Of a DNA stretch of 64,000 bases, positions 15,000 through 43,313 are shown in pieces; within the stretch, counting starts at the first letter, position 1; each line of letters opens with the position of its first letter. The stretch lies in assembly GCA_964016885.1 (NCBI GenBank), contig OZ024740.1, forward strand, positions 24,800,001 to 24,864,000, read 5' to 3'. The position numbers and the translations under genes are program-made. The stretch comes from Eledone cirrhosa (Eukaryota). The notes under the pieces are model-generated. The model had not been told where the DNA came from, ran no database searches, and worked only from the letters and a program-made list of their open reading frames with translations.

Positions 15000-15008
15000 T
15001 TCTTCTTC

Positions 15009-15079
<71 letters not shown>

Positions 15080-15090
15080 GTTATTGTTAT
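14930..15090. repeat. Compound (TTG)/(TTC)/(TTA)n microsatellite, left edge of the nested array
   Basis: Direct inspection. Confidence 0.95.
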
Positions 15091-16657: not shown

Positions 16658-16707
<50 letters not shown>

Positions 16708-19700: not shown

Positions 19701-22136
19701 AGTTAATCGGGCGTTGACGGGGGTCATCGTCAACAACAAGTGGTGGTTTGCTCTGAAATGAGCGATTACAATAGAATCCATTAGGTTTAGTAAGGCTTTA
19801 GCAATAGAGAAAAATAGAGCAGAGGGAGGACTAGTTAGGAAATTAGACGAGGCACTTAGCAAAGGCATCGCGACCGACGTGTTTGCGGCGAAATTGGCCC
19901 TTGAACAATTCTTCAATGCAAAGCACCAAGGCTGCGTTGTCAGAGCTCGGGTACGTGCTCTCAGACACGAGGGGACGAAAGCCGTTCAATGGGCCCGAGT
20001 GGCGGAGGCGCGTCGTGGCAACAAAGCCACGATCCGGTCTTTGGTGGACCACGACGGGCGCATGCTACTTGATCCCGGGCAAATGTGTGAAGCTTTTCAG
20101 CGACACTTCGCTCAGCTGTTCGGGGGCAGCGGTGGGCCGGGTTGAAGGTTGGACTTTAGTGTCTACCTCGACGGACTGCCGCGGCTCTCGGCCACTGATG
20201 CGGAGTGTTGCGAAAAGCCGATAACAGCCGCTGAAGTACGGGATGCAATGACTGGCTGCACAAGGGGTAATTCGCCTGGTTTGGGTGGTCTGCCCTATGA
20301 ACTTTACGCACAGATGCCAGACTTGTTCGGAGATCTATTGGCGGACGTCTACTGCAACTGGCAACATAACGGGAGAATTCCCAGCTCTGTGAGCCGAGGA
20401 GCGGTGGCACTGCTGAGAAAGGATCTGAACAAGGGGGATAACATAGATAATTTCAGGCCCATAACTCTGCTAAACACAGAGTTCAAGATTTTGGCCAAAG
20501 TGCTAGCAAAGAGGTTGGTGCTTTTCGTTGGTGGTCTGGTGGGAGAGGCGCAGACATGCGCCATTCCCGACAGATCCATCCACGACAACCTCCACCTCAT
20601 GCGATGCATCGTAGAGAGGGTAGCTAGGGAACCTGGCACGGGTGGGTCCTTGATCAATTTAGATCAGTCGAAAGCTTTCGATAGGGTCGACTATCGTTAC
20701 CTAGCGGCAGTCCTGAGGGCGGCTGGCTTTGGGCCCGTCTTCAGAGGCTGGATCGCTGCAATCCACAGCGACATCTGCCTTAGGTGAGAGTGATCGGTCA
20801 CCATTCGGAACCGTTCAACATCATGCGCTCGGTCCGCCAAGGATGTCCCCTCTCGTCCCTCTTGTACGTTTTGACTCTCGAGCCATTACTGCACAATCTG
20901 GAGACGTTGAGGGGCGTCCCGCGCGAACTAGGATGCGGAATATCCGTGTCAGCATGTGCACGATGTCACGGTAGTGGTGTCAACCAGGAAAAGTCAGTGG
21001 GCCTGCAGCTCGGCACCTGGAGAGGCAGCTCCATGCCGTCCAACAGCGTCGTCGGACGCTGGAGGGACGGACCGGTTAAATTGCTAGGGTTCTGGTTCGG
21101 TCCGGACCTCCAGACGGACAAAAACTGGGACGAGGTGACGAGCAGGGTGGCTTCTCTCACCCAGAAATGGGCGGAGAGGAAGCTATCCCTGAAAGGTCGA
21201 GCGGAGGTGGCTAACGCGTACATCGCGTTTGTCATCTGTTACCGCCTGACCGTCGTACCTTGTCCTAAGCCCCGCCTGACTGCGCGGGAGCGTTTGCTCT
21301 TTCGCTTTTTGGGGAAGGGACGCGCTCCGATGATCAGGCGGTCCATCTGCTGTCAACACCCGCTACGTGGATGGCTGGGCGTGCCGTGGCTGATGATGCG
21401 AAGACACGCGCTCAGGTTACGACATCTCCACCTCCTCCTCGACGGTGATCAGGTGTGGTAGCCGTTTGCTAGACACGTATTTCCCCAGCTCGTTTCCTTG
21501 ACGGAGCTGCAGTCCTGGGTTAAGCGAAGACCGAGAGGGAGCGCCTGGAGACTGGAATGTCTACAGGCGCTCACAGCTCTCGACCAATCGGGCAACGTGA
21601 TCGGTGGAAACTCCACCTCGGCCTTCTATAGAGGATTAGTGGAGGGGAAGAGCGACGACGTACTTGGGGAAACTCTAGGCGTCGACGAAAATCAACTAGC
21701 CAATCTCTTCGGAAGAACTTTCGGGCCGGGACCTATGGACAACTTCCAGAAATCTCTGGCCTGACAGTGCTACCGAGGAGCCTTGCCAGTTCGGGATAAA
21801 CTCTACAGGCAACTCTATGCGCGCAGGGCGACGAAACCGTCCTGCAAGCACTGGTCCAGTGTCCGAGCATTGCTGACTTGTGGGTTTATGTCGAACACCT
21901 GCTGTCGCGTGTAGGACGGCTCCGGCTATTATCTGAGTCCATCGTGAGGATTGCCCCGCTCTCTTCCTTTGGCCGGGAAGGGATGGCAGCTTTTATCTGC
22001 CTGGTGGTCATGGCGAAAGAGATAGTATGGTGGACGCGTTTGAAAGGGTTGAAGACGAGCACTTACCTCTTCGGTGATGCCCTGATTGACTTTTTCAAAT
22101 TTCATTTGAAAAGGAAAATCAGAGAAGAGAGGGAAG
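16708..22136 (+). mobile_element. Tx1-clade LINE family A copy A1 (decayed; broken ~330 bp before its 3' end)
   Basis: Starts after (TTA)n. ORF1 remnants 16925-18869; ORF2 from 18904 has APE motifs (SETR, GDWN, YLDR, TDH) and RT motifs, with stops, frameshifts and a damaged YADD. Confidence 0.92.
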
Positions 22137-24480
22137 AATGCGAAAGGCCAATTACTTCAGCCGAGATTCAGGATGCCCTTGTAGGCTGTATGAGGCGCAA
22201 GTCACTCGGTTTGGATGGCCTGCCCTACGAGCTTTACGTAAATATGCCAGACTTATTCTCCAATCTCCTCGAAGCGCTCTACTGCAACTGGCAGCAAAAC
22301 GGAGTATTCCCAGTTCTGTGAGCCGGGGCGTAGTGACGCTGATAAGGAAAGACGAGAACAAGAGGGACACATTAGACAATTTCAGGCCCATAATTCTGCT
22401 CAAAACAGAGTTTAAGATTTTGGCTAGGGTGTTAGCGAAGAGGTTGGCGCTTGTCGTCGGGGATTTGGTTGGGAAGGCGCAAACTTGCGCAATCCCAACC
22501 AGGTCCATACATGACAACCTCCACCTAATGCGATACATCATAGAGAGGGTAGGATGTAAACCTGGCTTCGGTGGGGTTCTGATCAATTTAGATCAATCGA
22601 AAGCATTCAATAGGGTCGACCATCGGTACCTGGAGGCTGTCCTCAAGGCGGCTGGCTTCGGCCCCGTCTTCAGAAACTGGATCGCTGCAATGCACAGCGG
22701 CACCTGCTCGATGGTCAAAATTAATGGCCACCTGCCGGAACCGTTTCAGGTCTTCCGATCGGTCCGTCAAGGGTGCCCTCTCTCCTCCCTTCTGTACGTA
22801 TTGACACTCGAACCGGGACGCGGAAGGGCTGTGTCGGCTTATGCGGACGACATCACCGTAATGGTGTCGGACACCTCAGAAATCGAGGTGGTCGGCAACT
22901 TATTGGAGGAATATGATAGGTTGACGGGAGCAAAACTTAACCCGGAAAAGTCAGTGGGCTTGCAACTCGGCACCTGGAGGAGCAAGTCCATGCCGTCCAA
23001 CAGCATCGTTAGGCGCTGGACGGACGGACCGGTAAAGTTGCTAGGGGTTTGGTTCGGGCCAGACCTCCAGGTAGATAAGAATTGGGACGAGGTGACGGGC
23101 AAGGTAGTAAGTCTCACCCAGAAATGGGCTGGGATAAAGCTATCACTGAAAGGTCGGGCGGAGGTGGCGAACGCGTACATCGCGTCCGTCATCTACTACC
23201 GTCTGACTGTCGTCCCTTACCCCCGTTTGCGCCTCGCCATCTTGGAGCAGCTCCTCTTCAAATTCTTGTGGAGGGGTCAGGTTCCGCTGGTGAGGCGGTC
23301 CATCTGCTGCCAGCACCCTCTACGTGGAGGGCTGGGAATGCTGTGGCTAATGATGCGCAGACACGCGCTGAGGCTGCGACATCTCCAGATATTCTGCCTA
23401 AACGGTGAACAGGTGTGGTCGCCGTTTGTCAGACGGGCCTTTCCGCAGCTCGTTTCTTTAACTGAGTTGCAGTCCTGGGTCAAGAAGAGACCGAGACTGG
23501 CTGACTGGCATCTGGAATGTTGCCAGGCACTCACTACCCTCTACTAGGTGCGCAATGCGGTCAGTGGAACTTCCACTCTCGTGTTATATAGAGGATTAGT
23601 GGTGGGCAAGTGCGACGACATATTCGGAGAGGCTATGGGAGTCAACGAAGTCGAACTAACCAGTCTGTACCGGAGGACTTTCGAGCCGGGGACGTTGGAT
23701 AATTTCCAAAAATCCCTCGCTTGGCAGTGCTACTGGGGTGCACTACCGGTTCGATATAAACTCTACAGGCACGGAAGTGCTGTCAGACGGACCTGCCCGA
23801 GATGCGCGCAGAGCGACGAAACCGTTCTGCACGCACTCGTCCAGTGTCCGTGCATTACTGACTTGTGGAGTTATGTTGAACAGCTGTTCTCGCGTGTAGA
23901 ACGGATCCGGCTATCGGCCGAGTCCATAGTGAAGATCGACCCGCCGCCTTCTTTTGGCCAGGAAGGGCAGGGAATTTTACTCTGTCTGGTGGCAGTAGCG
24001 AAAGAGGTTGTATGGTGGACGAAGTTGAACGGACTGAATACAGACACTTTTCTCTTCGGCCAATCCCTCATCAACTTTTTCAGGTTTCACTTGGAAAGGA
24101 AAGTGAGAGTGGAGAGAGAAGTGCTGCCCCCCAGTACATTTTCTGAAAGGTGGGTGAATGTGGCGAGAATGGCCCGTGTGAGCGGACCTACTCTGGTCAT
24201 GCGGCTGTAGGTAGGTAAATTTAAAGAGGAGAGGGGTGCCCTTCCAAGGTTCTCTCGAAGCGTCGGGTCGTTCCGGACTGGTGGGGTACCTGAGCGAACC
24301 CTAGGTGGTCATCCCCCCTATTGGGGAATGTTTTCTTGTAATTTTCTTGTTAATTTATTGTTACTTTGTTATTGTTACTTTGTTTATTCATATTGTTTAC
24401 TCGATTTTTCTGTAAAACCCCACTGTCCCAGTCTTTTGTATTGTCCCCTATATGTCGGCCCTGTGGCCAATAAATGAAAT
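22137..24480 (+). mobile_element. Tx1-clade family B, 3' half (RT, Cys-rich C-terminus, 3'UTR)
   Basis: ORFs 22138-23547 (QGCPLS, YADD) and 23548-24210 (CPRC...H..VQC). Clearly diverged from family A, with a distinct 3'UTR and an (ATT)n tail. Confidence 0.9.
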
Positions 24481-24697
24481 CATTATTATTATTATTATTA
24501 TTGGCGACCTACGTAGGAAATCGTATTATCGTGAGCTCTGCAAAGGTTTGTTATTTCCGTTTGTTTAAAAATTGCCATTTATGGAAAATTTTATTGTAAA
24601 CTGTTTATAAGCACACATACATTGTTTTCCGAAAAGGACACCCAAAAAGATTGGGGCCTTGTGCCCAAAATTTTAACTTTTATTATTATCCAAAAAT

Positions 24698-24878
24698 GGA
24701 TTGGCAGTATCGGTAGAGAGTCGGACGCCATGCTTTCCAGCATAGTTACGTCCTCCCTTTACAGTCTTATTTCAAATCCCGCCGAGGTTAACTTTGCCTT
24801 TCATCCTTACGGGGTCGATAAAATAAAGTACCAGTAATGTACTGGGTAATTGATGGCCTTGTGCCAAAAGTAGAAACA
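24698..24878 (+). mobile_element. Nin-domain SINE inserted in the A2 5'UTR
   Basis: 16-bp TSD attattatccaaaaat at 24682-24697 and 24879-24894; absent from A1 and A3. Confidence 0.92.
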
Positions 24879-24908
24879 ATTATTATCCAAAAATTTCTTT
24901 GAAAAAAG

Positions 24909-26905
24909 ATGGCTAATTCCCCTCTGCACGAAGCAGCTGAAAGCCTTCCTCACAAAATAACACCTCCCACCGACATCACCATTGTAAATGTTACTACGTT
25001 TGCCAACACAAAAAAAAATATAAGCAGTAGCAATATTTTAAATTTGTCTCAGGCAGACATTCATTTCCCGCCATTACCAATGACTGCAGGTGTTAAACCC
25101 TCCACCACCACCACCACCGCGACAACCACCACCACCACCACCACCGCGACAACAGAAACAAAAGAAGAAAAAAATAAATTAACTCGAGACGTCGAAATGA
25201 AATCAAGCAAAATGGACTCTTCCCCACCAAAGACGACTGACGTCACCACCACCACAACTGAAAATAAAATTAATATTAACGATGGCAACAACAACAACAA
25301 TGACATTATAAAACCGACCCTCAGTTTCGCCATCGTAGCAAAACAATTCGAAGCGTTCACGGTAACTCAAGAAGATTTAGAAAATGCCAAACAAATGGTA
25401 AAGAAAGATGGGTACAGGGTCAGCCTCACCCCCCCCCCCCCCCCCACCTAATAAAATGGAGCATCGGCGCCTGTGCACCGTGTCGTACAGAACAATAAAT
25501 GTAAAATCGCGCCGAGTGGAACGGGCATCCGAGTCCCAAATCCAAAAAGCTTTGGCACATGTGTGGGCAAGAAAAACCCACATCAGACGTGGGCAAAAGT
25601 ATGGAACCGTGGATGTGTTCTTTGAAACACCAGAGGAGGCTAGAGAACACTCCATGGCCCCATTAAAAAGTGACGACCTCACACTCGTCCCAAGCTATTG
25701 TGGCCAGAGACTCGTAAAGATCAGGGTGACCCACGTTCCACCGGCCATCGAAATTCCCTGGCTAATAGCGGCTGTCCTCGCCGGCATCGAAGCCAACACG
25801 AAAATAATAGCAGTAGCAAAAGAAAAGCAGGAAAACTGGTCCGGATCTGGGATGGAGCTCCTGATCCAAGCGGACCAAAAAAGCATTGAGGAGATCCCAG
25901 AGGTAATAGACCTCACTGACGGCAGCCACCTCACGGTAATTGTCGAGGGCAGAAGACCTAGGTGTGTCGTTTGTGGTGAAGGAACCCACCTAAGGGCTTT
26001 CTGCCCTCAGGCTAAAAGGTTGAGGCCACCTCTCCTACCCACCCCAGTGACACAACCATCAACACCACCAGTAGCAGAGATGGCAGCAACAACTGTAGCA
26101 GCAACAACAGAAGCAACTATAACAGCAACAACCCCAGCAACAGTAGCAAAACCAACACCACTACCACTACCAGCAAAACCAACACCACCACCACCCAACG
26201 CTTCAGAACTAGCACCAGCGCCTACACCATCCACCACACCACAACCAAAACTAACGGCTGTGGAGGATTTTCCACTCCCCGGCCTATCACAACTGGAGAC
26301 AGATTGGTACGACGAGGAGTGGGAAACGATATCCGGAAAAAAAAAAAAGAAACCAAAAAAGAAAAAATTCTCTTCCTTCCCCCTCCAAAAACAAAATACA
26401 GAGGGAAACAAATAAACTAAGAAACAAAAAAGTTAGGACAGATATGCCACCATCCACACCAGCATCACCAACCCCATCAACTCAAACACCAACACCATCA
26501 GCATCATTATCCCCAGCACCACCATCACCAACACCACAAAAGTCACCAAAATGCGAATCAGAAACAAACCCACAACAAACGCAAACAAAACAAAACAACC
26601 AAAACGATACACACTACACAGCATTAAATTTGAACAACAAGCAATTATTACACTACATCCAACACAACACCAGCATCACAGAAAAAGACTACACAACAAC
26701 CCCAAAATTCACACCACCTCCACACATACAAATCACTCGCATCACACAGAAAACGTACATGACACTAAAACAAAAATTCCCCAAAGACATCGGAGACTTC
26801 CGACAAGCACTCTCCAGGAGGATTTATAAGGACATCCTTCCTGAGGAGGCCACAAGCAGTGAAAAGGATGGAAAAGCCGTCCTTCCCCTACGAGAAGTAA
26901 GGTAA
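24909..26905 (+). pseudogene. Tx1-A ORF1 (gag-like; single CCHC knuckle; Pro/Thr-rich), frameshifted in homopolymer runs
   Basis: ORF pieces 24909-25451, 25408-26415 (CVVCGEGTHLRAFC) and 26444-26905; breaks at poly-C ~25430 and poly-A ~26340. Confidence 0.85.
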
Positions 26906-26939
26906 GTGGTCTTTCCCATCTTTTCCACTCCTTTTCAAC

Positions 26940-29900
26940 ATGACCTCACTCAGAATAGGCAGCATAAATGCGCGTGGCTTGGGGTCGTCATGGAAGCAGG
27001 ACCACCTGCTCAACGACCTCAGGTCACTAAACATAGATGTAGTGGCCATCAGCGAGACCAGAATCTCCGAAGCACAGGCTTTCGCACCGATCTTCGGCGG
27101 CTACGATGTGTTCGCATCTCCCAGCCGTCCGGGATCGGGGGGAAGAGTTGCTGTGCTTTTTCGGAGAGGTTTGGATCTTGCCATACGGGCCATCTTCCTG
27201 GACCCAGAAGGTAAGTTGGTGGTGCTGGACGTGACCAGCGGAGACGGGCAAGCTTTCAGGTTAGTGGCCGTCTATGCCCCGACAGGAGCAGGGCGGCCTA
27301 ATTTCTTCCGGCGTCTGGAGACCTTTCTTGGAACGTCCCGCTCTTTAGTGTTAGTGGGCGACTGGAACGGGATCTTAGATGCACGCTGGGATTGTGTGGG
27401 ATTAGTGGATAGGGAAGGAGGGTGCAAGAGTCTCACCAACCTGCTCAGACGTTTTGAACTGTCTGACAGGTACCGAATGGATTTCCCGAATGTACCAATG
27501 TGGACTTGGACAAATCGCATAGGGTTATCCAGATCATATCTAGATAGAGTATTTTGTAGGGAAATAGATAGGTCTAGCATAGGCTGTCCACAATTCAAGA
27601 TAGTCAGCTACACGGACCACAAATTCGTGATCTGTATGCTTGACTTAGATAGGCTTCATAGACGAGGACCCGGCTACTGGAAGTTAAACGCGTCCTTACC
27701 AGCGCGCAAGGCCTACAGAGACCGGATTAGCGAACTAGTTAAGCGGGCGTTGACGGGGGCCATCGTCAACAACAAGTGGTGGTTTGCTCTGAAAAGAGCA
27801 ATTAGAATAGAGTCCATTAGGTTTAGTAAGACTTTAGCAATAGAGAAAAATAGAGCAGAGGGAGAATTAGTTAGAAAATTAGATGAGGCGCTTAGCAAAG
27901 GCATCGCGACCGACGTACTTGCGGCGAAATTGGCCCTTGACCAATTCTTCAATGCAAAGCACGAAGGCTGCGTTGTCAGAGCTAGGGTGCGTGCTCTCAG
28001 ACACGAGGGGACGAAAGCCGTTCAATGGGCCCGAGTGGCGGAGGCGCGTCGTGGCAACAAAGCCACGATCCGGTCTTTGGTGGACCACGACGGGCGCATG
28101 CTACTCGATCCCGGGCAAATGTGTGAAGCTTTTCAGCGACACTTCGCTCAACTGTTCGAGGGCAGTGGCGGGCCGGATCGAGGGATGGACTTTAGTGTCT
28201 ACCTCGACGGACTGCCGCGGCTTTCGGCCACTGAGGCGGAGTGTTGCGAAAAGCCGATAACAACCGCTGAAGTACGGGATGCAATGGCTAGTTGCACAAG
28301 GGGTAAATCGCCTGGTTTGGATGGTCTGCCCTATGAACTTTACGTACAAATGCCAAACTTGTTCGGAGGCCTCTTGGCGGACATCTACTGCAACTGGCAA
28401 CAGAACGGGAGAATTCCCAGCTCTGTGAGCGGTGGAGCGGTGGCGCTGCTGAGAAAGGATCCGAACAAGGGTGATAACATAGATAATTTTAGGCCCATAA
28501 CTCTGCTAAACACAGAGTTCAACATTTTGGCCAAAGTGCTAGCAAAGAGGTTGGCGCTTGTCGTTGGTGGTCTGGTGGGAGAGGCACAGACATGCGCCAT
28601 TCCCGACAGATCCATCCACGACAACCTCCACCTCATGCGATACATCGTAGAGAGGGTAGCTAGGGAACCTGGCACGGGTGGGTCTTTGATCAATTTAGAT
28701 CAGTCGAAAGCCTTCGATAGGGTCGACCATCGTTACCTAACGGCAGTCCTGAGGGCGGCTGGCTTTGGGCCCGTCTTCAGAGGCTGGATCGCTGCCATGC
28801 ACAGCGACATCTGCTCTGTAGTGAGAGTAAACGGTCACCTTTCGGAACCGTTCAACATCATGCGCTCGGTCTGCCAAGGATGTCCCCTCTCGTCCCTATT
28901 GTACGTATTGACTCTCGAGCCATTACTTCACAAACTGGAGACGTTGAGGGCGGTCCCGCGCGAACTAGGATGCGGAAGATCCGTGTCAGCATATGCCGAC
29001 GATGTCACCGTAGTGGTGTCGAACGCCAAACACATCGAGGCGATCGGCACTACACTAAGAGAATACGAAGCGGTGACAGGAGCAATGATCAACCAGGAAA
29101 AGTCAGTGGGCCTGCAGCTCGGCACCTGGAGAGGCAGGTCCATGCCGTCCAACAGCGTCGTCGGGCGCTGGACGGACGGACCGGTTAAATTGCTAGGGGT
29201 CTGGTTCGGTCCAGACCTCCAGACGGACAAAAACTGGGACGAGGTGACGAGCAGGGTGGCTTCTCTCACCCAGAAATGGGCCGACAGGAAACTATCCCTG
29301 AAAGGTCGAGCGGAGGTGGCGAATGCGTACATCGCATCCGTCATCTACTACCGCCTGACCGTCGTACCTTGTCCTAAGCCCCGCCTGACTGCGCTGGAGC
29401 GTTTGCTCTTTCGCTTCTTGTGGAAGGGACGCGCTCCGATGGTCAGGCGGTCCATCTGCTGTCAACACCCGCTACGTGGAGGGCTGGGCATGCCGTGGCT
29501 GATGATGCGCAGACACGCGCTCAGGCTACGACATCTCCACCTCTTCCTCGACGGTGATCAGGTGTGGTCGCCGTTTGCAAGACACGATTTTCCCCAGCTC
29601 GTCTCCTTGACGGAGCTGCAGTCCTGAGTCAAGCGAAGACCGAGAGGGAGCGCTTGGAGACTGGAATGTCTTCAGGCGCTCACAGCCCTCGACCAATCGG
29701 GCAATGTGATCGGTGGAAACTCCACCTTGGCGTTCTATAGGGGATTAGTGGAGGGGAAGAGCGACGACGTACTTGGAGAAACTCTAGGCGTCGACGAAAA
29801 TCAACTAGCCAATCTCTTCGGAAGGACTTTCGGGCCGGGGCCTATGGACAACTTCCAGAAATCCCTGGACTGGCAGTGCTACCGAGGAGCTTTGCCAGTT

Positions 29901-30358
29901 CGGGATAAACTCTACAGGCATGGAGATGCCGTCAGCCGGGCATGTCCGAGATGCGCGCAGGGCGACGAAACCGTCCTGCACGCACTCGTCCAGTGTCCGA
30001 GCATTGCTGACTTGTGGGTTTATGTCGAACACCTGCTGTCACGTGTAGGATGGATCCAGCTATCAGCTGAGTCCATCGTGAGGATTGCCCCGCCCCCTTC
30101 CTTTAGCCTGGAAGGGCAGGCAGTTTTTATCTGTCTGGTGGCCATGGCGAAAGAGATAGTATGGTGGACAATTTGAAAGGGCTGAAGACGAGCACTTACC
30201 TCTTCGGTGATGCCCTGATTAACTTTTTCAAATTTCATTTGAAAAGGAAAATCAGGGTAGAGAGGGAAGTGCTCTCTTCCCAGCATTTTGTTGAAAGATG
30301 GGTGAGAGAAGCAAGTATGGCCCGAATGAATGGGCCTTCTCTGAGTATGTGTCTGTAA
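26940..30358 (+). pseudogene. Tx1-A ORF2 (APE endonuclease plus reverse transcriptase)
   Basis: 895-aa open segment with SINARGL, GDWN, DH, QGCPLS and YADD; a Trp-to-TGA stop at 29625-29627 and a frameshift near 30172. Confidence 0.93.
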
Positions 30359-30600
30359 ATTAAAGGTGGAAAACTGGGAGAGGGCACTTGCCCTGGTGGT
30401 CAGGGCCACTGTGGTCTTTTAATGGGCTTTCTCCACAAATGTCCCTTGGAAGTCTCCCCCCTATTGGGGAATTTTTCTTTGTTATTTTATTTCAACCTCT
30501 GTTTTTTTACACGCAGAAATGCCCATTTGTACCGTCCTGTATTGTCCTGTACTGTCCTTAATGTCTACTTTATGTGAACCCTTGTGGTTAATAAAGAAAA

Positions 30601-30652
<52 letters not shown>

Positions 30653-30666
30653 GTTGTTGTTGTTAT

Positions 30667-33600
30667 TCCTTGAATCTCAGTCATTGATGTTGGTTAACTG
30701 GAAAGTCCGTTGGAATGAATATCAAGCCACTACCTGCAGCCTCAGATATTCAGGACGTATCGGAAGGTTCTTGCTGTTCCAAGCAAGCATGCCTTTTGAA
30801 GCGTTCCAAAAAGCGTGACGGGGCCGATTTTCTTTAACCATCCCTGGAAACTTTTGGAGATAGTCCCCAGTGCGCCTATGACAATCGGGATCACTTTGAC
30901 TTCATGGCAGTTCCACATCCTTTTCACCTCCCACTTTAGGTCCTGGTATCGGTTAATTTTCTCCCTCTCCTTCTCTTGCACTCTCGTGTCGAAAGGGCAG
31001 GCCACATCCACAATCAGACACGATCTTTTTTCTTTGTCCACAACCACCAGGTCAGGTCTATTGTGTTCCAGTTTTTTGTCCGTCTGTATCCTAAAATCCC
31101 ACAGCACCTTCACCTGATTGTTCTCCATCACCGCCTCTGGCCTATGCTCATACCATTTCTCAGAGTGTGGTGAATTGTTTACTTTGCACAGGTGCCAGTG
31201 GATCACCCTGCCCATCACATCGTGTCTCCAGCCCTTATAGTGGGTCTGGGCTAGGTGTTTAAACTCGGACACAATGTGAGCCACAGTCTCCTCTCTCTCT
31301 CCACAGATCCTGCACAGTGGGCTAGCCTCCTCCTTGTAAATATGGTGCTTCAACCACTTCGTTTTGAGGGCCTGCTCCTGCGCAGCCATTAGCATTCCTT
31401 CTGTAGCCTTTTTGAGGTCTCCTCTTCTCAACCAGTTCCATATCTGTGGATCTCTAAATTCAGTTTTCTCAAAGAAGGTACTATGAAGGGATTTTCCCTT
31501 AAGGCTGCTCTTCCTCCTTGATGTTATTTCCTCCTTGGACATCCCCTGGCCTACTGTCCCCTCCTTCAGTACAGTTCTGAGCATTGGCTCCTTACTATAG
31601 GTCACGTATTTGTATAGGTTGTTTTTCTCCATCTGAACACAGTCCTCTATGCTGATAAGACCTCTTCCACCCTCAGATCTCCTTAGGTAGAGTCTATCGA
31701 CATCACTCCTCTTGTGGAACATGTTGTAGATAGTCAATAGCTTCCTAGTCTTCCTATCCATTTCTTTTTGTTCAGCAACATTCCATCTCAGAATTCCCGC
31801 ACTGTACCTAATAATAGACACAGCTCGGGAATTTACTGCGCTTATGGAATTTCTGCTGTTCAGATGTGACTTCAATACGCTCCTTACTCTCCGAATGTAT
31901 TCAGTTCTTAACAATTCCTTCATTTTTTTGTTCTTTATGCCATCAGCCTCCAGAACGCCCAAATACTTGTATCCTTCCTCAGAGTCAATTTCCTTTATCA
32001 TCTCACCTGTTGGTATATGGATCCCGTTACTTCTGCTCAACCTACCCCTCTTCATCACAATGACTCCACATTTACTAATACCAAACTGCATACATATATC
32101 ACTGCTGAAAATACGGACAGTGTCAACAAGCACATCCAACTCCTTCTCACTTTTCACGAAGAGCTTAAGATCGTCCATGAAGAGGAGGTGATTGATGGTA
32201 AGCTCTCCCTTTCCCAACTTGTATCCTGCTCTCACTTTTCGCAGCATAATGCTCAAGGGCATCAGGGCAAGGACAAACAACAGAGGGGACAGGCTATCTC
32301 CCTGGAAGATACCTCTCTTGATCTTCACGCTTCCCAAGGATACTCCAGTTGATGTCAACTCTGTCTCCCAGGACCCCATACTCCTGCCCAGCATCTGTCT
32401 GATGTTATCTGCCACCCTGAAGATCTCCAGGCTTTTGGTGATCCAAGAATGAGGCACCATGTCAAATGCCTTTCTGTAGTCTATCTATCCCATGGCAAGA
32501 TCAGTGTGTCTCCTCCTGCAATTCCCCATTACAATCTTATCAATAAGTAACGAGTCCTTTGTACCACGTGACTTCTTTCGGCATCCTTTCTGTTCGTCCG
32601 GTAACAAGTTGTTTGTGTGGAGGTGATGGTCGATTTCCTCAGACACAATGCTCGTCAACAGTTTCCACATTACGGACAGACATGTGATAGGTCTATAGTT
32701 GGTAACATCATTACCATTGATTCGGTCTTTCATTATCAGAACTGTGGTACCTTTTGTCAACCACTCTGGCACCTCACCCGACACCAAGCAGTCATTGAAC
32801 ATGGCCGTCAGCTTCGGGTGGAGGGATGTTAAATTTTTAATCCAATACCCCTGCACACCATCTGGGCCTGGTGATTTCCAGTTGGTTAGTTTTTTGGCCT
32901 GCCCCTTAAGAGTTTCAACTGTGATACTCAAATCAGTTTGTTGGTGTGCCTCCTCACCGATCTCCCTCTATACTGTCTCAATCCACCCTGCCTGGACATT
33001 ATGTCTAACATCCTGCTCCCATATTCCTCTCCAGAATGTTTTAGTTTGCTCCGCCCCAAGGATCAAGTCGTTGCCTCTTTCTTTCCCCTCAAGCTGTCCA
33101 AACAGCATCTTCTGGTTGTTGTCGAACATGCGGTTCTGTTTATACTGACTGACTCTGTTCTCGTATAGCCTGATTTTTGCACTCTTTGCTACAATGCGTT
33201 GCTTCAGTTCCTCTATGATAATATTTAGCTTTTTCCTCCTAGTTTTGTACTTTATTTCCAGTCTATTTTTAGTGCCTATGTTTTTTAGTGTCCCATTCAG
33301 TAGTGACTCAAGCTTTCCTATGTCATTTCTCATTTCCCCGATTTGACCATTCAGTCGTTTCTTCCACCACGGCTCTGCTCTTTCTTGTCTGTTGTTTCCT
33401 CTCGCTTTTATACCAAGTAGTTTCCTCACCGTATTTGCTGTTGCTTTGAGGATATTGTTGCACTGGTGAAGGCTCCTCGCCTCAAGGTATGGGATGACTT
33501 TGTTTACCTTAGCTGTTGTTTCTTTTAACTTTTTCCTGTCTACAAATCTTAGGTTCATAGGTCTCCCACTATCATTGTTCAATTCATCTACCACTAAATT

Positions 33601-34660
33601 TAGGATGTCAACCGAATCTTGTCCCAGCCCGTCAGCATTCATCTCCTCAGTGGCCGTATCTCTGTTCCAGGTATTATTTATCTCAGTATTCAGATCATTG
33701 TCTGCTTCGGGTGGTTCCTCCGTACTCAGGACCTCTTCACCTTCATTTCCCACTGGCTCGCTTGTCTGGCATACTACACCCGCCATCTCAAAGCCATTCT
33801 CTCTGCTCAGTTCCTCCAGTTCCAGCCCAGCTCGCTTATCCACCCATTAGTTCTTATTACCCGAGCCTGCCCGGCCAATTTTTGTTAATCTAATTTAAAT
33901 AGACCAATCTCGTTCCAGATGTTATGCATCCGTCTCCTGTAGCCCCTCTCCTTGGGGTTACTTTTCAGGTAACATTGCATAACAGTTCTATTCAATTCTT
34001 TAGTCCAGTTGGTTCTGGCCCTTTTCCTTCTTCTTCTTCCTCCAACATCAGCAGTATTTGGTTGACAGTCAGGTTCCTGCTGCTGAGCCAGGGGGTACCT
34101 GTTGGGTGAGTGTCTGTCACATGACGTTCTAGTCTCCATTTCACCGTTATTCGAACTGTTTATGTTCGATATTTAAACACTCTTATCGAGGATTGGCGAA
34201 TGTATGGTTACATAGCCATCTGTGGATCCGCCGTTCCACTTGGCCCTTGTGTGGCATTATCACCACGCTGTATACGAAAACACATAAACAAACAAACACA
34301 CAGGCAGAAAGGGCCCCAAAAATGAATAAGCATAAGTTTCATTGTAATGTAGTGTTCGAATGTCTGACTTAGTTTTTGTTTTTTTAGTTTTAGTTTTTCC
34401 CCCTCTTCTCTGTCCGTCCGCCTGCTTCTCTCTTCATTCTTATTTTCTTTACGTTTTTTGTTTTTGTTTTACCCTGTTTGTTTTTCTCGTTTTTTGCTGT
34501 TGTTGCTGTGCTGCTTTGGTTTTGTTGTTTGTTTTTTCTTTTTTCTTTTGAGTCTATCTATATATTTATTTTGATGCCTTCCTCTTTTTTAGTAGTAGGA
34601 ATTCTATAATGTGGTGGCAGCAGCCATCTAGGAGAAGTGGGCCATTGGCGGCGGTAGCGA
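30667..34660 (-). mobile_element. R4/Dong-clade element copy 2, apparently full length, disrupted ORF (~34139 to 30742)
   Basis: N-terminal WTKELNRTVMQCY...GYRRRM..IW; RT SPGPDG, QGDSLSP, FMDD; RLE; ~520-nt 5'UTR; (TAA)n on both sides. Confidence 0.93.
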
Positions 34661-34733
<73 letters not shown>

Positions 34734-36847
34734 GGCTACCTATGTAGTAAATCGTATCATCGTGAGCTCCGCAAAGGTTTGTTGTTTTCGTTTGTTTAAA
34801 ATTGCCAGTTATGGAACATTTTTATTGTCAACTGTATATAAGTGCACATACAATGTTTTCCGAAGAGGACACTCAAAAAGATTGGGGCCTTGAGCCCAAA
34901 ATTTTAAATTTTATAATTATCAAAAAAAAACTTTCTTTGAAAAAACATGGACGACTCACAGCCACACGAAGCTGACAACCTTCCTCACAAACTAACACCT
35001 CACACCGACACCACCATTGTAAATATTACTACATTTGCCAACACTGAAAATATAAGCAGTAGCAATATTTTTAATTTGTCTCAGGCAGATATTCATTTCC
35101 CGCAATTACCAATGACTGCAGGCGTTAAAGCCGCCGCCACCACCACCGCGACAACAGAAACAAAAGAAAAAAATAAATTAACTCGTGATATCGAAATGAA
35201 TTCAACCAAAATGAACTCTTCCACACCGAACACCACTGACGCCACCACCACCACAACTGAAACTAAAATTAATAATAACAAAAATAACGATAACAACAGC
35301 AACAATGTTTTCTTTATTAACCACAAAGGTTTACATAAAGTAGACATTAAGGACAGTACAGGACAATACAGGACGTTACAAATGGGCATTTCTGCGTGTA
35401 AAAAAAACAGAGGATGTAATAAAAAATACCAATGAAAAATTCCCCAACAGGTGGGAGACTTCCGAGGGACATTTGTGGAGAAAGCCCATCAAAAGGCCAC
35501 ATTGACCCTGACGACCAGGGCAAGTGCCCTCTCCCAGTTTTCCACCTTTAATTTACAGACACATACCCAGACACATACTTCACTCAGGCCATACTTGCTT
35601 CTCTCACCCATCTTTCAACAAAATTCTGGGAAGAGAGCACTTCCCTCTCTACCCTCACTTTCCTTTTCAAATGAAATTTGAAAAAGTTAATCAGGGCATC
35701 ACCGAAGAGTTAAGTGCTCGTCTTCAGCCCTTTCAAACGTGTCCACCATACTATCTCTTTCGCCATGGCCACCATACAGATAAAAACTTCCTGTCCTTCC
35801 CGGCTAAAGGAAGAGGGCGGGGCAATCCTCACGATGGACTCAGCTGATAGCTGGATCCGTCCTACACGTGACAGCAGGTGTTCGACATAAACCCACAAGT
35901 CAGCAATGATCGGACACTTACGAATGCGTGCAGGACGGTTTCGTCGCCCTGCGCGCATCTCGGACATGCCCGGCTGACGGCACCTCCATGCCTGTAGAGA
36001 TTATCCCGAACTGGAAAACTCCTCGGTAGCACTGCCAGGCCAGGGATTTCTGGAAGTAACAACAACAGCAACAATGACATTAAGAAAACCAGCCTGAGTT
36101 TTGCCAGAGTGGCAAAACAGTGGGAAGCATTTCAGGTAACTCAGGTGGAATTAGAAAAAGCCAAACAAATGGTAAGAAAGATGGGTACAGGGTCAGCCCC
36201 CCCCCCCACACACACACAAACACCTAATAAAATGGAGCATCGGCGCCTATGCACCGTGTCTTATCGAACAATAAATATAAGTGGAACGGGCATCCGAGTC
36301 CCAAATCAAAAAGCTTTGGGACATGTTTGGGAAAAAAAACCCCACATCAGTCGTGGGCAGAAATATGGAACCGTGGACATGTTCTTTGAAACACCACTGG
36401 AGGCTAGAGAACACTCCATGACCCCATTAAGAAGTGACGACTTCACACTCATCCCAAGCTATTGTGGCCAGAGACTCGTAAAGATCAGGGTGACCCACAT
36501 TCCACTGGCCATCGAAATTCCCTGGCGGCTAATAGCTGCCGTCCTCGCCGGCATCGAAGCCAACACCAAAATAATCGAAATAGCGAAAGAAAAGCAAGAG
36601 AACTGGTCCGGATCAGGGATGGAGCTCCTGATCCAAGCGGACCAAAAAACATTGAGAAGATCCCAGAGGTAATAGACCTCAGTGACGGCAGCCACCTCAC
36701 CGTGATCGTCGAGGGCAGAAGGCCTATGTGTGTCGTTTGTGGTGAAGGAACCCACCTAAGGGCTTTCTGGCTCAGGCTAAAAGGTTGAGGCCACCTCTCT
36801 TACCCACCCCAGTGACTCAACCATCAACACCACCAGCAGCAGAGATG
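34734..36847 (+). mobile_element. Tx1-A copy A3: 5'UTR and first part of ORF1, interrupted and 3'-broken
   Basis: Homologous to 24503-26081; ORFs 34947-35435 and 36109-36672. Confidence 0.9.
35308..36056 (-). mobile_element. 5'-truncated Tx1-A copy inserted antisense in A3 ORF1
   Basis: Reverse complement of ~29851-30600; TSD aacaacagcaacaatg at 35292-35307 and 36061-36076. Confidence 0.9.
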
Positions 36848-39290
36848 AAGCCCGCTACCATCTCTGACCCGCCACTTCCCCCGAACAACCGAGCAAAAAT
36901 GTTGGCGAAAGGCCTCACACATCCTATTGGAATCGCTCAGCTCGAGCCAGTCTCGGTCCGTCAAAGACAAAATCGTGGTTTTATCACCAGGCTGCGCCTC
37001 TGCCACGCGGGCCCATCGAACAGCTTTGGTTCCCTCGTTTCTCAGAGCACGCGCCTTAGCTCTGACAATACAACCTTCGTGTTTCGCATTGAAGAAATGG
37101 TCTAATGCCATTCTCGCCGCTAGCACATCAGTTGCAATGCCACTACCAATAGCCTCGTCTAACTTATCTACCAACTCTCCCTCCTTTCTATTTTTCTCTA
37201 ATGCTACTTCTTTGCTAAACTCTATCGACATTACTCTAATCTCTCTTTTGAGAGCCTCCCCCACCATCTATTGTTGACGACTCCCCCTGTCAACTTTTTC
37301 TTAACTAAATTGTTGACCTGGTCCCTGTGCTGGAAATGACATGTTTAGCTTCCAGTAACCAGGTCCTAGCCTACGCATCTTATCTAGGTCAACCATACAG
37401 ATCACAAACTTGTGATCTGAGTAGGCGACCGTTTCAAAACGTGGACAGCTTACACTATATCTGTCTATTTTCCTAATGAATATCCTGTCTATATACGATC
37501 TAGATGACCCTATGCGGTTAGCCCAGGTCCACACTGGTGCATTAGGGAAATCTAGTCGGTACCTGTCAGACAGTTGGAACTGGCTGATCAGGTTCTTGAG
37601 GCTTTTGCACCCCCCGCTCCTATCGGATACTCCCACACAGTCCCAGCGTGCGTCTAAGATGCCGTTCCAGTCCCCCGCTAACAGTAAAGGGCGAGACGTA
37701 CCCAGAAAGGCTTCTAGGCCTCTAAAGAAGTCCGGCCGTCCTGCCCCAGTAGGAACATAGACGGCCACCAGTCTAAAGGCACCACCTTCATTACTGTTCA
37801 CGTCCAGGACAACCAACTTCCCGTCCGGGTCCCGGAAGATCGACCTTACCTCGAGATCCAGGCCTTTCCAAAACAGCACTGTTTTTTCTATTGGTGTTGT
37901 TTTTGGTGGTTTTGCCGGTGCAGGTGTTGGTTGTGGTCCTCGCCCCGGCGTCGGCAGCAGTGGAGCCTTTCAACCCCTTGCCTCTTTCAGCAGTTGAGGG
38001 CAGAAGGCTCGCAAATGGGTTTTTTCCCCACAAACAAAACACTGCGGCCTTTGCCTTCGGTCATAATGTGAATGACAGTCCCATTCTGAAAGCAGATGTG
38101 GTCTGGGATTGTCTTCACATTCTCGGGCCTGATCTGGAGAAGGATCTCCAGGTCAACCCAGGACCAGTCCTCCGTGGCCGTTCTGGTCACTTCTATAGGG
38201 ACTGTATCAATCCCCTCCACAATCACACATCCCAGAAGCCACCACATGTCAAGTCCTGGTGGGATTCTGGGAATGCGGAGACGGGCCGTCTTTTTCCCAT
38301 GTGGGAGGGGTACATTATGACCTTGCTGGTTTTGCAAGGAGTCATGGCGTGTTTCATCGCGAGGGCTTCTGACTTGAACAACACCGAAATGGTGCCATAC
38401 TGTCTGCCCCTCTCTATGTACTGGGTGTCTTCTCTGATGCACCTCAGCGCGACTTCGATATCTTCTTGTGGGATTAACGCTGCCCTTTTGGTCTGTGCTG
38501 AGATGCATCTATAATGCACCGTTTTGCCCTCCACTGCCTCAATAGCTTCTACCGGGACAGTTAAAAGTTGGCCCAAGTTTGCTGTTGCTTGATGAGCTTC
38601 CATGCTTGGGCCAACCTTTCATCTTTGTTTGAGAGGTCCATGTTGAAGCATGGCCTCTTTTTTGCTGCTGCCGCAGAGAAAGTGGTCTTGTTTTCGTTGG
38701 GGGTGTTGTTGACGTTGTTCTTGTTGGTGTTGTTGTTAGCACTGTCGCTGTTATCATTGTTGTCTTTGTTGCCACCGTTGTTCTCGGTGCAGTTTGTATT
38801 GTTGCTGTTGGTGTTGTCGCTATTTGTTTTCATGTTAGTGGTGTTGATATTGTTGTTGTATTTGTTATTTTTTTTTTTTGTTATCAGTATTTTCGTTGCC
38901 GCTGTTACTGTCATTTTTTTTCAAATTAGATTTCTTATTGGTATCATTGGTGTCTTTGTTTACCTTGTTTGTGGTGGTGTTTGTGTTATCAATGTGTGTT
39001 AATTTCGCTGTAGCGCTTTTCTCAACTTCTAAGTCGTTGTCGCACGACAGCCGACATATCGCTGGGGGGCGTGGCTCAGCCATGTTTTTTTTTCTTCGTA
39101 AATTTTTTAACATATAAAAAAAGTTCAAATATTTGGACCAAAAGGCCCAAATATTATACTTTCCCCTTCACGGGGCAAAGTATAAGGGCTTATATCCCTT
39201 ACACAACAAGAAATATTTAACAACAAATAACTTAAACAGGCAAATAAAGCGACTTACTGTTGTTGCGAGCAAAATACGTCCGCTTAGACC
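36848..39290 (-). mobile_element. Tx1-clade non-A element (probably family B), 5' half with an internal deletion
   Basis: 5' end abuts the 39291 microsatellite; ORF1 ATG at 39083, RGRQYGTISVLF, CFVCGEKTHLRAFC; APE GDWN/SDH in ORF 37301-37879. Confidence 0.88.
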
Positions 39291-39332
<42 letters not shown>

Positions 39333-39333
<1 letters not shown>

Positions 39334-42300
39334 TCATGTAACAGACTCTCACCCAGAAGGTGCTCCCTGGCTCAGCAGCAGGGACCTGGCTGTCAACCAA
39401 ATACTGCTAGTGTCGGAGGAAGAACAAGAAGGAAAGGGACCAGAACCAACTGGACGAAAGAATTGAATAGAACTGTTATGCAATGTTACCTGAAGAGTAA
39501 CCCCAAGGAGAAAGGCTATAGGAAACGGATGCATAACATTTGGAACGATATTGGTCTATTTAAATTAGATGAACAAAAATTGGCCGGGCAGGCTCGGGTA
39601 ATAAGAACTAATGGGTGGCTAAGCGAGCTGGAACTGGAGGAACTGAGCAGAGAGATTAGGTTGGAAATGGAGAGTGGAGTATGCCAGGCAAACGAGCCAG
39701 TGGGAAATGAAGGTGAAGAGGTTGAGAGAACGGAGGAACCATCCGAAACAGACAATGATCTGAATGCTGAAATAAATAATACCTGGAACAAAGATACGGC
39801 CATTGAGGAGACGAATGTTGACGGGCTAGGAAAAGATTTGGTTGATATCCTAAATTTAGTGGTAGATGAATTGAACAATGATAGTGGGAAACCTATGAAC
39901 CTAAGATTTGTAGACAGGAAAAAGTTAAAAGAAAAAACAGCTAAGGTAAACAAAGTCATCCCATACCTTGAGGCGAGGAGCCTTCAACAGTGCAACAATA
40001 TCCTCAAAGCAACAGCAGATGCGGTGAGGAAATTAGTTGGTATAAAAGCGAGAGGAAACAACAAACAAGAAAGATCAGAGCCTTGGTGGAAGAAACGACT
40101 GAATAGTCAAATCAGGGAAACGAGAAATGACATTGGAAAGCTTGAGTCCCTACTGAATGGGACACTAAAAAACATAGACACTAAAAATAGACTGGAAATA
40201 AAGTACAAAGCTAGGAGGAAAAAGATATATATTATCATAGAGGAACTGAAGCAAGGAATTGTAGCAAAGAGTGCAAAAATTAGGCGATACGAGAGCAGAG
40301 TCAGTCAGTATAGACAGAACCGCATGTTTGACAACAACCAGAAGATGTTGTTTGGACAGCTTGAATTGAAAGAAAGAGGCAACGACTTGATCCCTGAGGC
40401 GGAACAAACTAAAACATTCTGGAGAGGAATATGGGAGCAGGATGTTAAACATAATGACCAGGCAGTGTGGATTGAGACAGTACAAGAGGAGATTAGTGAA
40501 CAGGCACACCAACAAACTGATTTGAGTATCACAGTCGAAACTCTTAAGGGGCAGGCCAAAAAACTAACCAACTGGAAATCACCAGGCCCAGATGGTGTGC
40601 AGGGGTATTGGATTAAAAATATAACATCCCTCCACCCGAAACTGACAACCATGTTCTATGACTGCTTGATGTCAGGTGAGGTACCAGGGTGGTTGACAAA
40701 AGGTACCACAGTTCTGGTAATGAAAGACCGAATCAAGGTTAATGATGTTACCAACTATAGACCTATCACATGTCTGTCCGTAATGTGGAAACTGTTGACA
40801 AGCCTTATGTCTGAGGAAATCTACCATCACCTCCACACAAACAACTTGTTACCGGACGAACAGAAAGGATGCCGAAAGAAGTCCCGTGGTACAAAGGACC
40901 AGTTACTTATTGATAAGATGGTAATGAGGAATTGCAAGAGGAGACACACTGGTCTTGCCATGGGATGGATAGATTTCAAAAAGGCATTTGACATGGTGCC
41001 TCATTCTTGGATCACCAAAAGCCTAGAGATCTACAAGGTGGCAGATAACATCAGACAGTTGTTGGGCAAAAATATGAAGTCCTGGAAAACAGAGTTAACA
41101 TCAGCTGGAGAATCCTTGGGGGGCGTGAAGATCAAGAGAGGTATCTTCCAGGGAGATAGTCTGTACCCTCTGTTGTTTGTCCTTGCCCTGATGCCCCTGA
41201 CCATTATACTGCGAAAGGTGAGAGCAGGATTCAAGTTGGGAAAGGGAGAGCTTACCATCAATCAACTCCTCTTCATGGACTATCTTAAGCTCTTCGGGAA
41301 GAGTGAGAAGGAGTTGGATGTGCTTGTTGACACTGTCCGTATTTTCAGCAATGATATATGTATGCAGTCTGGTATTGGTAAATGTGGAGTCATTGTGATG
41401 AGGAGGGGTAAGTTGAGCAGAAGTAACGGAATCCAGATACCAACAGGTGAGATGATAAAGGAAATTGACACTGAAGAAGGATACAAGTATTTGGGTGTTC
41501 TGGAGGCTGATGTCATCAAGAACAAAAAAATGAAGGAATTGATAAGATCTGAATACATTCGGAGAGTAAGGAGCGTATTAAAGTCACATCTGAACAGTAG
41601 GAATGCCATAAGTGCAGTAAATTCCTGAGCTGTGTCTATTATTAGGGAATTCTGAGATGGAATGTTGCTGAACAAAAAGAAATGGATAGGAAGACTAGGA
41701 AGCTATTGACTATCTACAACATGTTCCACAAGAGGAGTGATGTCGATAGACTCTACTTAAGGAGACCTGAAGGTAGAAGAGGTCTTATCAGCATAGAGGA
41801 CTGTGTTCAGATGGAGAAAAATAACCTACACAAATACGTGACTGATAGTAAGGAGCCAATGCTCAGAACTGTACTGAAGGAGAGGACAATAGACCAGGGG
41901 ATGTCCAACGAGGAAATAACAACGAGGAGAAAGAGCAGCCTTCATGAAATATCCCTTCATAGTACCTTCTTTGAGAAAACTGAATTTAGAGATCCACAGA
42001 CATGGAACTGGTTGAAAAGAGGAGACCTTAAAAAGGCTACAGAAGGAATGTTAATGGCTGCGCAAGAGCAGGCCCTCAACACGGAGTGGTTGAAACACCA
42101 TATTTACAAGGAGGAGGCTAGCCCACTGTGCAGGATCTGTGGAGAGAGAGAGGAGACTGTGGCTCACATTGTATCCGAGTGTAAACACCTAGCCCAGACT
42201 CACTATAAAGGCTGGAGACATGATGTGATGGGCAAGGTGATCCACTGGTACCTATGCAAAGCAAACAATTTACCACATTCTGAGAAGTGGTATGGGCATA

Positions 42301-42776
42301 AGCCAGAGTCGGTGATAGAAAACGATCAGGTGAAGGTGCTGTGGGATTTTAGGATACAGACGGACAAGAAACTGGAACACAATAGACCTGACCTTGTGGT
42401 TTTGGACAAAGAAAAAAGATCGTGCCTGATTTTAAATGTGGCCTGCCCATTCGACACGAGAGTGAGAGAGAAGGAGAGGGAGAAAATTAACCGATACCAG
42501 GACTTAAAGTGGGAGGTAAAAAGGATTTGGAACTGCCATGAAGTCAAAGTGGTCCCGATTGTCATAGGCGCACTAGGTACTATCTCAAAAAGTTCCAGTG
42601 ATGGTTAAAGAAAATTGGCCCCGCCACGCTTTTTGGAACGCTTCAAAAGGCATGCTTGCTGGGAACAGCAAGAACCCTCCGATACGTCCTGAATATCTGA
42701 GGCTGCAGGTAGTGGCTTGATATTCATTCCAACAAACTTTCCAGTTAACTAACATCAATGACTGAGACTCAAAGAA
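39333..42776 (+). mobile_element. R4/Dong-clade element copy 3, lacking the 5'UTR, inactive
   Basis: ORFs 39133-41628 and 41682-42608; RT motif mutated to FMDY; (TAA)n on both sides; stem-loop tgaatatc...gatattca over the stop codon. Confidence 0.93.
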
Positions 42777-42787
42777 CAATAACAATA

Positions 42788-42817
<30 letters not shown>

Positions 42818-42818
<1 letters not shown>

Positions 42819-43073
42819 TGTGTCTGTAAATTAAAGGTGGAAAACTGGGAGAGGGCACTTGCCCTGGTGGTTAAGGTCACTCTGGCCTTTTAATGGGCTT
42901 TCCCCACAAATGTCCCTCGGAAGTCTCCCCCCTATAGGGGAATTTTTCATTGTTATTTTTATTACATCCTCTGTTTTTTTTACACGCAGAAATGCCCATT
43001 TGTACCGTCCTGTATTGTCCTGTACAGTCATTAATGTCTACTTTATGTAAACCCTTGTGGTTAATAAAGAAAG

Positions 43074-43075
<2 letters not shown>
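42818..43075 (+). mobile_element. Tx1-A 3'-terminal fragment (candidate missing end of A1)
   Basis: Matches 30347-30603; (TAA)n on the left but (TTA)n on the right. Confidence 0.88.
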
Positions 43076-43113
<38 letters not shown>

Positions 43114-43313
43114 ATTATTAACATTATTATTGGTTGTCTTTAGAATTAATGGCGTCACATATTCCCTGCCTTCATCAGTACCGCACTGAAATGAACTCCA
43201 TTGAGACGTTTTGTCTATTTTTCACTATCTTTAAATCTCCACCATTTTTTCTACATAGTATCATTGGTGTTGATGATGCTCGTATTTGTTATTGGCTTGT
43301 TGTTTTGGACGGT

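Follow-up and report, generated by a model that had tools for sequence, protein, structure and literature searches.

In the genome of Eledone cirrhosa, a copy of a long interspersed element (LINE), here called A1, is interrupted by a 20.7-kb block of further retroelements whose left and right parts face in opposite directions. The locus lies within a stretch of 64,000 nt (contig OZ024740.1, positions 24,800,001-24,864,000, in a 3.0-Gb assembly), which is referred to as the window and from whose first nucleotide all coordinates are counted. The initial annotation had proposed that this block was inserted with the inversion geometry of L1 twin priming. The sequence bears out the structure, and the geometric reading proved right. 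The locus is most economically explained by a single, concerted and two-ended insertion into A1. As to its mechanism, we tentatively favor a single copying event with twin-priming geometry, whose template was most probably a read-through RNA in the sense of the Dong-like LINE that closes the block.

Two split elements and three junctions delimit the block

The map of the window was built from self-BLAST, an open reading frame (ORF) list, a Pfam scan and Tandem Repeats Finder (TRF). Three LINE families, termed A, B and Dong-like, make up an array at 14-43 kb (self-BLAST, ORFs, Pfam), with A and B being ~79% identical to each other. The left part of A1, designated P, lies on the plus strand and extends from its 5' start (GGCGACCTACGTAG) at 16708 to 22136, where it breaks off at the position equivalent to 30269 in the full-length copy A2 (self-BLAST, alignment to intact copies). 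An A 3' end on the same strand, designated S, resumes at 42820 (about 30345-30349 in A2 equivalents, by alignment) and runs to 43137. Aligned to L007, an intact A copy, 20980-22136 corresponds to positions 469-1650 and 42820-43109 to positions 1730-2024, with 79 nt missing in between.

A B element is also split, with its two halves in opposite orientation. Its 5' half, including the region encoding the apurinic/apyrimidinic-type endonuclease (APE), occupies 36848-39290 on the minus strand, and its 3' half, encoding the reverse transcriptase (RT) and a zf-RVT domain, occupies 22139-24502 on the plus strand, where it ends in ..CCAATAAATGAAATC and an (ATT)7 tail at 24481-24502 (both halves by Pfam and alignment). 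In L002, L004 and L006, which are intact B copies, about 408-1450 corresponds to 37881-36846 on the minus strand and 1501-2190 to 22139-22826 on the plus strand, so that the halves are separated by 50-52 missing nucleotides, a gap visible in the alignment. Both half-queries also recovered 11 other genomic B copies, and in these the element runs on uninterrupted from one half to the other, 52 nt separating the two matches. Alignment to the intact copies assigns both halves to one family, and their loads of private substitutions are alike (2.5%, 25/1014, for the 5' half and 3.0%, 47/1584, for the 3' half; other B copies carry 1.1-1.8% in 3/5 references).

The microsatellite tracts between the elements change polarity at the same places, as the initial annotation had noted and TRF now confirms: the repeats are of the ATT type up to 34733, of the AAT type in the tracts between 39291 and 42819 and of the ATT type thereafter. 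The individual tracts are ATT/TTA-type at 16658-16707, 24481-24502 (by reading), 30602-30667 and 34661-34733, AAT-type at 39291-39332 and 42778-42819, and again ATT-type at 43075-43131. Polarity flips exactly at 36847/36848 and 42819/42820.

These positions coincide with two of the three junctions. At J1 (22136/22139), the A sequence ..GGGAAG is followed by an AA filler (22137-22138, by alignment) and then by TGCGAAAGG.. of B. At J2 (36847/36848), ..GCAGAGATG of the A copy A3 is followed by AAGCCCGC.. of reverse-complemented B, with a 2-nt TG microhomology. At J3 (42819/42820), an (AAT)14 tract runs straight onto GTGTCTGTAAATT.. of A, with a 2-nt AT microhomology. Our genome searches each scored the best 40 of about 700-10,000 candidates in the assembly, and J1, J2 and J3 were spanned by the window alone among the best 40 of 5727, 3480 and 681 candidates, respectively.

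Junctions of this kind could in principle stem from the assembly itself, through mischaining of copies from different loci or through chimeric reads. The region does consist of high-copy repeats that are 92-100% identical to copies elsewhere, the assembly holds no second haplotype copy of the locus, and public sequencing runs yielded no read-level support for the junctions: none contained at least half of the query words, and the best-matching runs, at about 1.4 Gb, were too shallow for a junction test. Four runs examined over 21500-37500 and J2 gave repeat unitigs of about 30-90 nt, none of which bridged J2, and loose unitig ends at 36848 continued as ordinary A sequence; at this coverage, both results are uninformative. 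However, the junctions join non-homologous positions, one of them with filler, whereas overlap misjoins occur at homologous positions, and three chimeras formed at random would neither pair up on two elements, at distances of 79 and 50-52 nt, nor follow the order of a twin-primed insertion. An assembly artefact is thus an improbable source of the structure.

The target rule of the three families and the origin of S

The sense strand of A and B runs along (ATT)n and that of the Dong-like elements along (TAA)n; the ORF list places the coding strands of the Dong copies opposite to those of the neighboring A and B copies. A and B carry (ATT)n both at their 3' end and ahead of their 5' start, and Dong copies end in (AAT)n. 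At genomic loci fetched for comparison, which partly overlap so that the counts are not all independent, an ATT-type repeat follows 30/30 B 3' ends and 13/16 A 3' ends and precedes 42/42 A 5' starts, and an AAT-type repeat follows both Dong 3' ends (2/2). Dong1-3 are all flanked by repeat in the TAA polarity of their own sense strand. A single (TTA)n.(TAA)n tract can therefore accumulate A and B in one direction and Dong elements in the other, nested and in tandem. The left edge of the plus-polarity array has a (TTC)n(TTA)n tract (14964-15091; TRF, sequence) that holds the tail side of Dong1, a 5'-truncated Dong-like element (15026-16657, minus strand; self-BLAST, ORF) that is 98.2% identical to Dong2, and (TTA)17 (16658-16707, TRF) directly before the 5' start of A1. 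Tandems of B and A are also common in the genome: 29 of the 39 non-self matches listed for the query 24250-24560 (loci L067-L095) span a B tail, (ATT)n and an A 5' start, which reflects either frequent landing of A in B tails or the joint spread of B-A pairs.

Measured against this rule, the two sides of S differ. Its right flank is natural, with a normal (ATT)n tail at 43075-43137 followed by non-repeat sequence. Its 5' side adjoins (AAT)14 without an ATT remnant, whereas all five naturally truncated A copies (5/5) have an ATT- or TTG-type repeat there. Because this side violates the polarity rule, S would begin at a breakpoint inside an A element rather than at a natural truncation. Probably, S is the other part of A1, with the same orientation and polarity as P. 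The nearest-copy rankings of the two parts differ (P is nearest to L007, S to L044-L046), but the reference set is too small for subfamily linkage, and we therefore compared their private-substitution loads. These amount to 4.0% (45/1122) for P and 2.9% (7/239) for S; they are mutually compatible and both exceed the 1.6% of A2.

The block has the layout of a twin-primed insertion

The block comprises a left part, Q (22139-36847), and a right part, R (36848-42819). Behind the B 3' half, Q contains the full-length A element A2 (24503-30667, plus strand; APE, RT and zf-RVT; self-BLAST, Pfam) with an (ATT)22 tail; Dong2 (30668-34660, minus strand; self-BLAST, ORF), which lies tail to tail with A2; and, after (TAT)24 at 34661-34733, the 5' part of A3 (34734-36847, plus strand; A positions about 1-1390; self-BLAST, alignment). 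R comprises the B 5' half, an (AAT)14 tract (39291-39332; TRF) between the B 5' end and the 5' truncation point of Dong3, and Dong3 itself (39330-42819, plus strand; RT, CCHC and RPD..K; self-BLAST, ORF, Pfam), whose (AAT)14 tail at 42778-42819 adjoins S.

Q represents the upstream continuation of the template of R, turned round. Rebuilt in the Dong sense, the array, termed Z, reads antisense A3 (from about 1390), Dong2, antisense A2, antisense B, Dong3 and (TAA)n. The expectation that flipping the left part would yield a uniform array was borne out for microsatellite polarity; it fails for the coding strand, in which Dong runs opposite to A and B. Twin priming predicts, in this order, the left target, the reverse complement of Z from a point x to its 5' end, Z from a point x' to its tail, and the right target, with x near x'. 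The window matches this order: x adjoins P, x' lies at J2, the two are 50-52 nt apart, and the tail abuts S. On the Dong-sense reading, Q is inverted and R is direct, with its (AAT)14 tail next to S. The layout proposed initially is thus present in both order and orientation, with a template read in the Dong sense and terminated by the (TAA)n tail of Dong3.

A mechanism consistent with this layout would start from a break in the 3' untranslated region (UTR) of A1, with the loss of 79 nt. The 3' end on the S side would give rise to R by priming on the terminal (UAA)n of a transcript in which antisense A3 and antisense B precede the 5'-truncated Dong3, while the 3' end on the P side would prime internally, with two untemplated A's, and be extended toward the 5' end of the RNA to give Q. 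The two cDNA ends would then be joined at the TG microhomology. Finally, A2, Dong2 and a SINE-like element (resembling a short interspersed element) would enter (ATT)n tracts, expanding the insert from ~10 kb to 20.7 kb. As adjacency of a B tail and an A 5' start is common (29/39), the minimal template would require an ordinary arrangement only.

Other geometries fared less well. Twin priming in the B sense was rejected, as it leaves the direct 3' half at the wrong flank. Starting from a natural array, every single or double inversion worked through by hand needs either exact breakpoint reuse or at least five breaks. A related, stepwise local history would begin with an off-target insertion that seeded a minus-polarity array in the A1 3' UTR, followed by site-specific growth and inversion of the left 14.7 kb with loss of the A3 3' part; in a variant, an eight-element array was reshuffled by a multi-break event, with S being independent of A1. 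Such a history requires no donor, and site-specific nesting is indeed common, given the 29 B-to-A tandems and the repeated inverted insertions of A at one internal A site described below. Independence of S is also conceivable, since 4/23 A copies start in the 79-nt interval. However, by our reasoning, the inversion breakpoint would have to coincide exactly with the left boundary of the array, or five breaks would have to occur in one event. Moreover, an independent S should have kept the ATT-type 5' repeat found in 5/5 truncated copies and 42/42 A starts, whereas it adjoins (AAT)14, and 0/19 A copies are interrupted at the insertion site. We therefore regard a stepwise origin as unlikely.

Relative ages and a possibly smaller original insert

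The initial annotation had described the block as about three times longer than a LINE. This holds for the 20.7 kb present now; the original insert was possibly only ~10 kb long, as A2, Dong2 and the SINE-like insert perhaps entered later. The elements that form the junctions carry private loads of ~4% (A1), 3.0% (A3, 21/692), 2.5-3.0% (B) and 2.2% (Dong3, 35/1621), and A2 carries 1.6% (23/1471); Dong2 differs from Dong1 by 1.8% (98.2% identity). A2 and Dong2 look youngest in the array, with the age order being rough, as the reference sets differ among families. All (ATT)n tracts in the block are normal targets, making later entry of A2, Dong2 and the SINE-like element possible. The original insert may thus have been made up of Dong3, B and the 5' part of A3 (about 10 kb altogether), and, if A2 and Dong2 came later, its inverted copy would have measured about 3.7-4.5 kb and its direct copy 6.0 kb. 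Alternatively, a Dong-type LINE with a restriction-like endonuclease (RLE) could have twin-primed a read-through transcript of the whole 20.7-kb array, including A2 and Dong2, at a non-canonical break, a scenario that we consider decidedly doubtful.

Donor searches and DNA-level alternatives

The initial annotation had called for a donor locus and for an empty allele. No donor was found with junction queries or B-half queries, among the 40 candidates scored for each, or in the 29 B-to-A tandem loci, and the search for an empty allele was likewise negative: the junction between Dong1 and A1 is unique in the assembly, which represents one haplotype. The junction between the B tail and A2 was rejected as a donor marker; it matches a common tandem arrangement and is not diagnostic.

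Several observations weigh against the RNA-templated event that we favor. Any copying model is weakened above all by the missing donor. Among the best 40 candidates, the window alone spans the junction of the SINE-like insert in A2, the right junction of the 751-bp inverted fragment in A3 and the junction between the Dong3 truncation point, (AAT)n and the B 5' end. No near-identical B copy was present among those scored, the closest being 96% identical for the 5' half and 93%, gaps included, for the 3' half, and the 29 B-to-A tandem loci contained no outlier (mismatch of 4.0-6.9% in B and of at least 4.2% in A3). If its own B had inserted shortly before the copying, however, a donor would not stand out by identity. 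The target is unusual as well: it is a non-repeat A 3' UTR, whereas the Dong copies here sit in (TAA)n, and all 19 A copies that run through the insertion site are uninterrupted there. The 79-nt fit between P and S is weak on its own, since, in a sample of 23 A copies chosen for their similarity to S, four have their start within this interval (at 30288, 30316, 30327 and about 30340; one further copy starts at 30232). The late entry of A2 and Dong2 is suggested by relative ages only. To our knowledge, which is not based on a specific literature search, twin priming has not been reported for an RLE LINE. Finally, an RNA template, a DNA template and the capture of fragments cannot be told apart from the topology.

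The same topology would indeed result if a double-strand break in A1 was repaired at the DNA level, either by end-joining capture of two fragments of a shattered (TAA)n LINE array or by replicative, microhomology-mediated copying of a DNA donor array from both ends of the break, as in fork stalling and template switching (FoSTeS) or microhomology-mediated break-induced replication (MMBIR), both of which are replication-based modes of rearrangement. The junctions, with 0-2 nt of microhomology or a 2-nt filler, are of a kind typically left by end joining; capture by cut and paste does not depend on a donor that survives, in agreement with the negative donor searches; and the array is rich in endonuclease target tracts, at which breaks would arise. 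However, random capture of two fragments would, by our reasoning, give the appearance of twin priming in only 2/8 combinations of order and orientation. In addition, the template ends exactly at the Dong 3' tail, which is predicted for an RNA template but not for capture, and a donor, in most cases close by, would be expected to remain after replicative copying, and the searches revealed none. DNA-level repair is thus possible but, in our view, somewhat unlikely, and we retain the Dong-sense read-through RNA as our tentative preference.

Classification of the element families

Pfam detects Exo_endo_phos, RVT_1 and zf-RVT in A2 and B, in line with the APE endonuclease, RT and zf-RVT that A and B each encode. 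This domain set and the ATT-targeted insertion agree with the Tx1 group, and Tx1, the name used in the initial annotation, is retained as a putative label. The Dong copies encode an RT without APE. In the ORFs of Dong3, Pfam finds RVT_1 and no Exo_endo_phos, and its translation contains the C-terminal motifs CRIC..H..C (CCHC) and NRPD..K, the latter having N where an acidic residue is expected for a PD-(D/E)XK-type nuclease. Judged by these predicted features, the architecture of Dong3 fits the RLE type. The designation Dong-like likewise fits this architecture and the (TAA)n target. A look-up in the Atlas returned unnamed RVT_1 clusters for the Dong-like elements and generic APE+RT clusters for A and B, all without clade names.

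Most B copies align to the B element of the window only from 37881 downstream, with 1/40 scored loci covering the 519 nt upstream (37882-38400), which suggests that the B 5' region is modular or variable among copies. Among the private substitutions of P, 1/45 is a CpG transition, and other copies are alike, indicating little CpG decay in the GC-rich bodies of these LINEs.

Other repeats in the window

The A family appears to be a recurrent target of its own insertions. Inverted, 5'-truncated A 3' fragments sit at one point of the A 5' region, an AAT/AAC-rich run, in three copies: at 35306-36056 within A3, with a ~15-nt target duplication, at L016:1623-1842 and at L017:1619-1980. They differ in length (751-794, about 220 and about 362 nt). 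It thus seems that A elements contain, in reverse polarity, an internal version of the sequence they target, and that the family has inserted into itself repeatedly. To the left of the array, an old A 3' fragment in inverted orientation (14074-14504, minus strand; 6.9% private substitutions) is cut at A2-equivalent 30232, as is the unrelated copy L047. Truncations of A seem to be concentrated in ATT-like stretches of the element. At L044:1400-1560 (C6, 35.537 Mb), an A tail with (ATT)n is followed by ~26 nt of antisense Dong 3' end and, directly after it, by an A 3' fragment beginning at about 30340. This joining point lies within 5-7 nt of the start of S, which may be a coincidence or reflect a recurrent joining point.

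The SINE-like insert in A2 (24697-24885, ~14-nt target duplication, at the site TTATTATT) belongs to a repeat of ~185-190 nt with at least five copies in the window (also at 14650-14861, 46265-46660, 51461-51792 and 61270-61479) that occurs at 99% identity at many genomic sites; it had no match by ARAGORN or in Rfam. At the left end of the window, 1-4009 contains inverted repeats (1-578 equals 4009-3434 at 96.7% and 1272-1924 equals 3500-2849 at 95.9%) whose arms carry 72-nt tandem repeats, and this region may represent a foldback-type element.

Discussion

The block in A1 shares its main features with insertions generated by twin priming of L1, a mechanism attributed to Ostertag and Kazazian (2001), as cited in PMC12016303. 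In both cases, the 5' part is inverted and precedes a 3' part in direct orientation, whose tail adjoins the target. On the template, the point where the direct copy stops is close to that where the inverted copy begins (50-52 nt here). The apparent loss of target sequence is small, and the junctions show short microhomology or filler. In human L1, according to passages of PMC12016303, 5' inversions affect 18-22% of insertions, the two cDNA ends map within 20 bp of each other in 132/287 cases, and the cDNAs of germline inversions have median lengths of 751 and 571 bp. With parts of 6.0 kb and 14.7 kb as they stand, the block described here would be an outsized variant. It also differs in that its template would be a multi-element read-through RNA instead of a single element, in that its tail stems from an RLE rather than an APE-type LINE, and in that its target departs from the consensus and the searches for a source element were negative.

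Among LINEs, members of the Tx group are described as target-specific in a section of PMC3747384, and RLE LINEs are described as targeting repeats such as microsatellites in a section of PMC4640811. The Dong-like elements in the window resemble the LINEs of the Dong/R4 clade in possessing an RT without an N-terminal APE, a C-terminal CCHC motif followed by RPD..K, (TAA)n tails and flanks, and nested tandem copies within one tract. In 2004, Kojima and Fujiwara reportedly described (TAA)n-specific LINEs of this clade along with other microsatellite-targeting LINEs. Dong3 departs from this pattern in that its tail adjoins the non-repeat A 3' UTR. Sequence carried along from the flank of a LINE, as well as inversions and deletions with short microhomologies that arise from retrotransposition intermediates or template switches, are also features of L1 5' transduction and of LINE-mediated or replication-based complex rearrangements, as covered in portions of PMC11702581 and 10.1101/2024.08.27.596794. 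In contrast to these, the present case is a germline, fixed-in-assembly single locus, at which no duplicated donor or flanking copy-number change is visible.

The weight of a single locus in a repeat-rich region, which is known from the assembly alone and touches none of the genes examined, is modest. Nevertheless, an RNA-mediated event would extend twin priming beyond the APE-type L1 elements, and promoter-less, co-transcribed LINEs could then carry along many kilobases of an upstream array. Composite repeat blocks could be moved and inverted in this way, which would complicate both the annotation and the dating of repeats. If the whole array was reverse-transcribed as it stands today, LINEs that target microsatellites would be able to retro-duplicate entire arrays as one unit. 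If, on the other hand, the event was DNA-mediated, the locus would be an example of endonuclease-targeted microsatellite arrays acting as hotspots of complex rearrangement.

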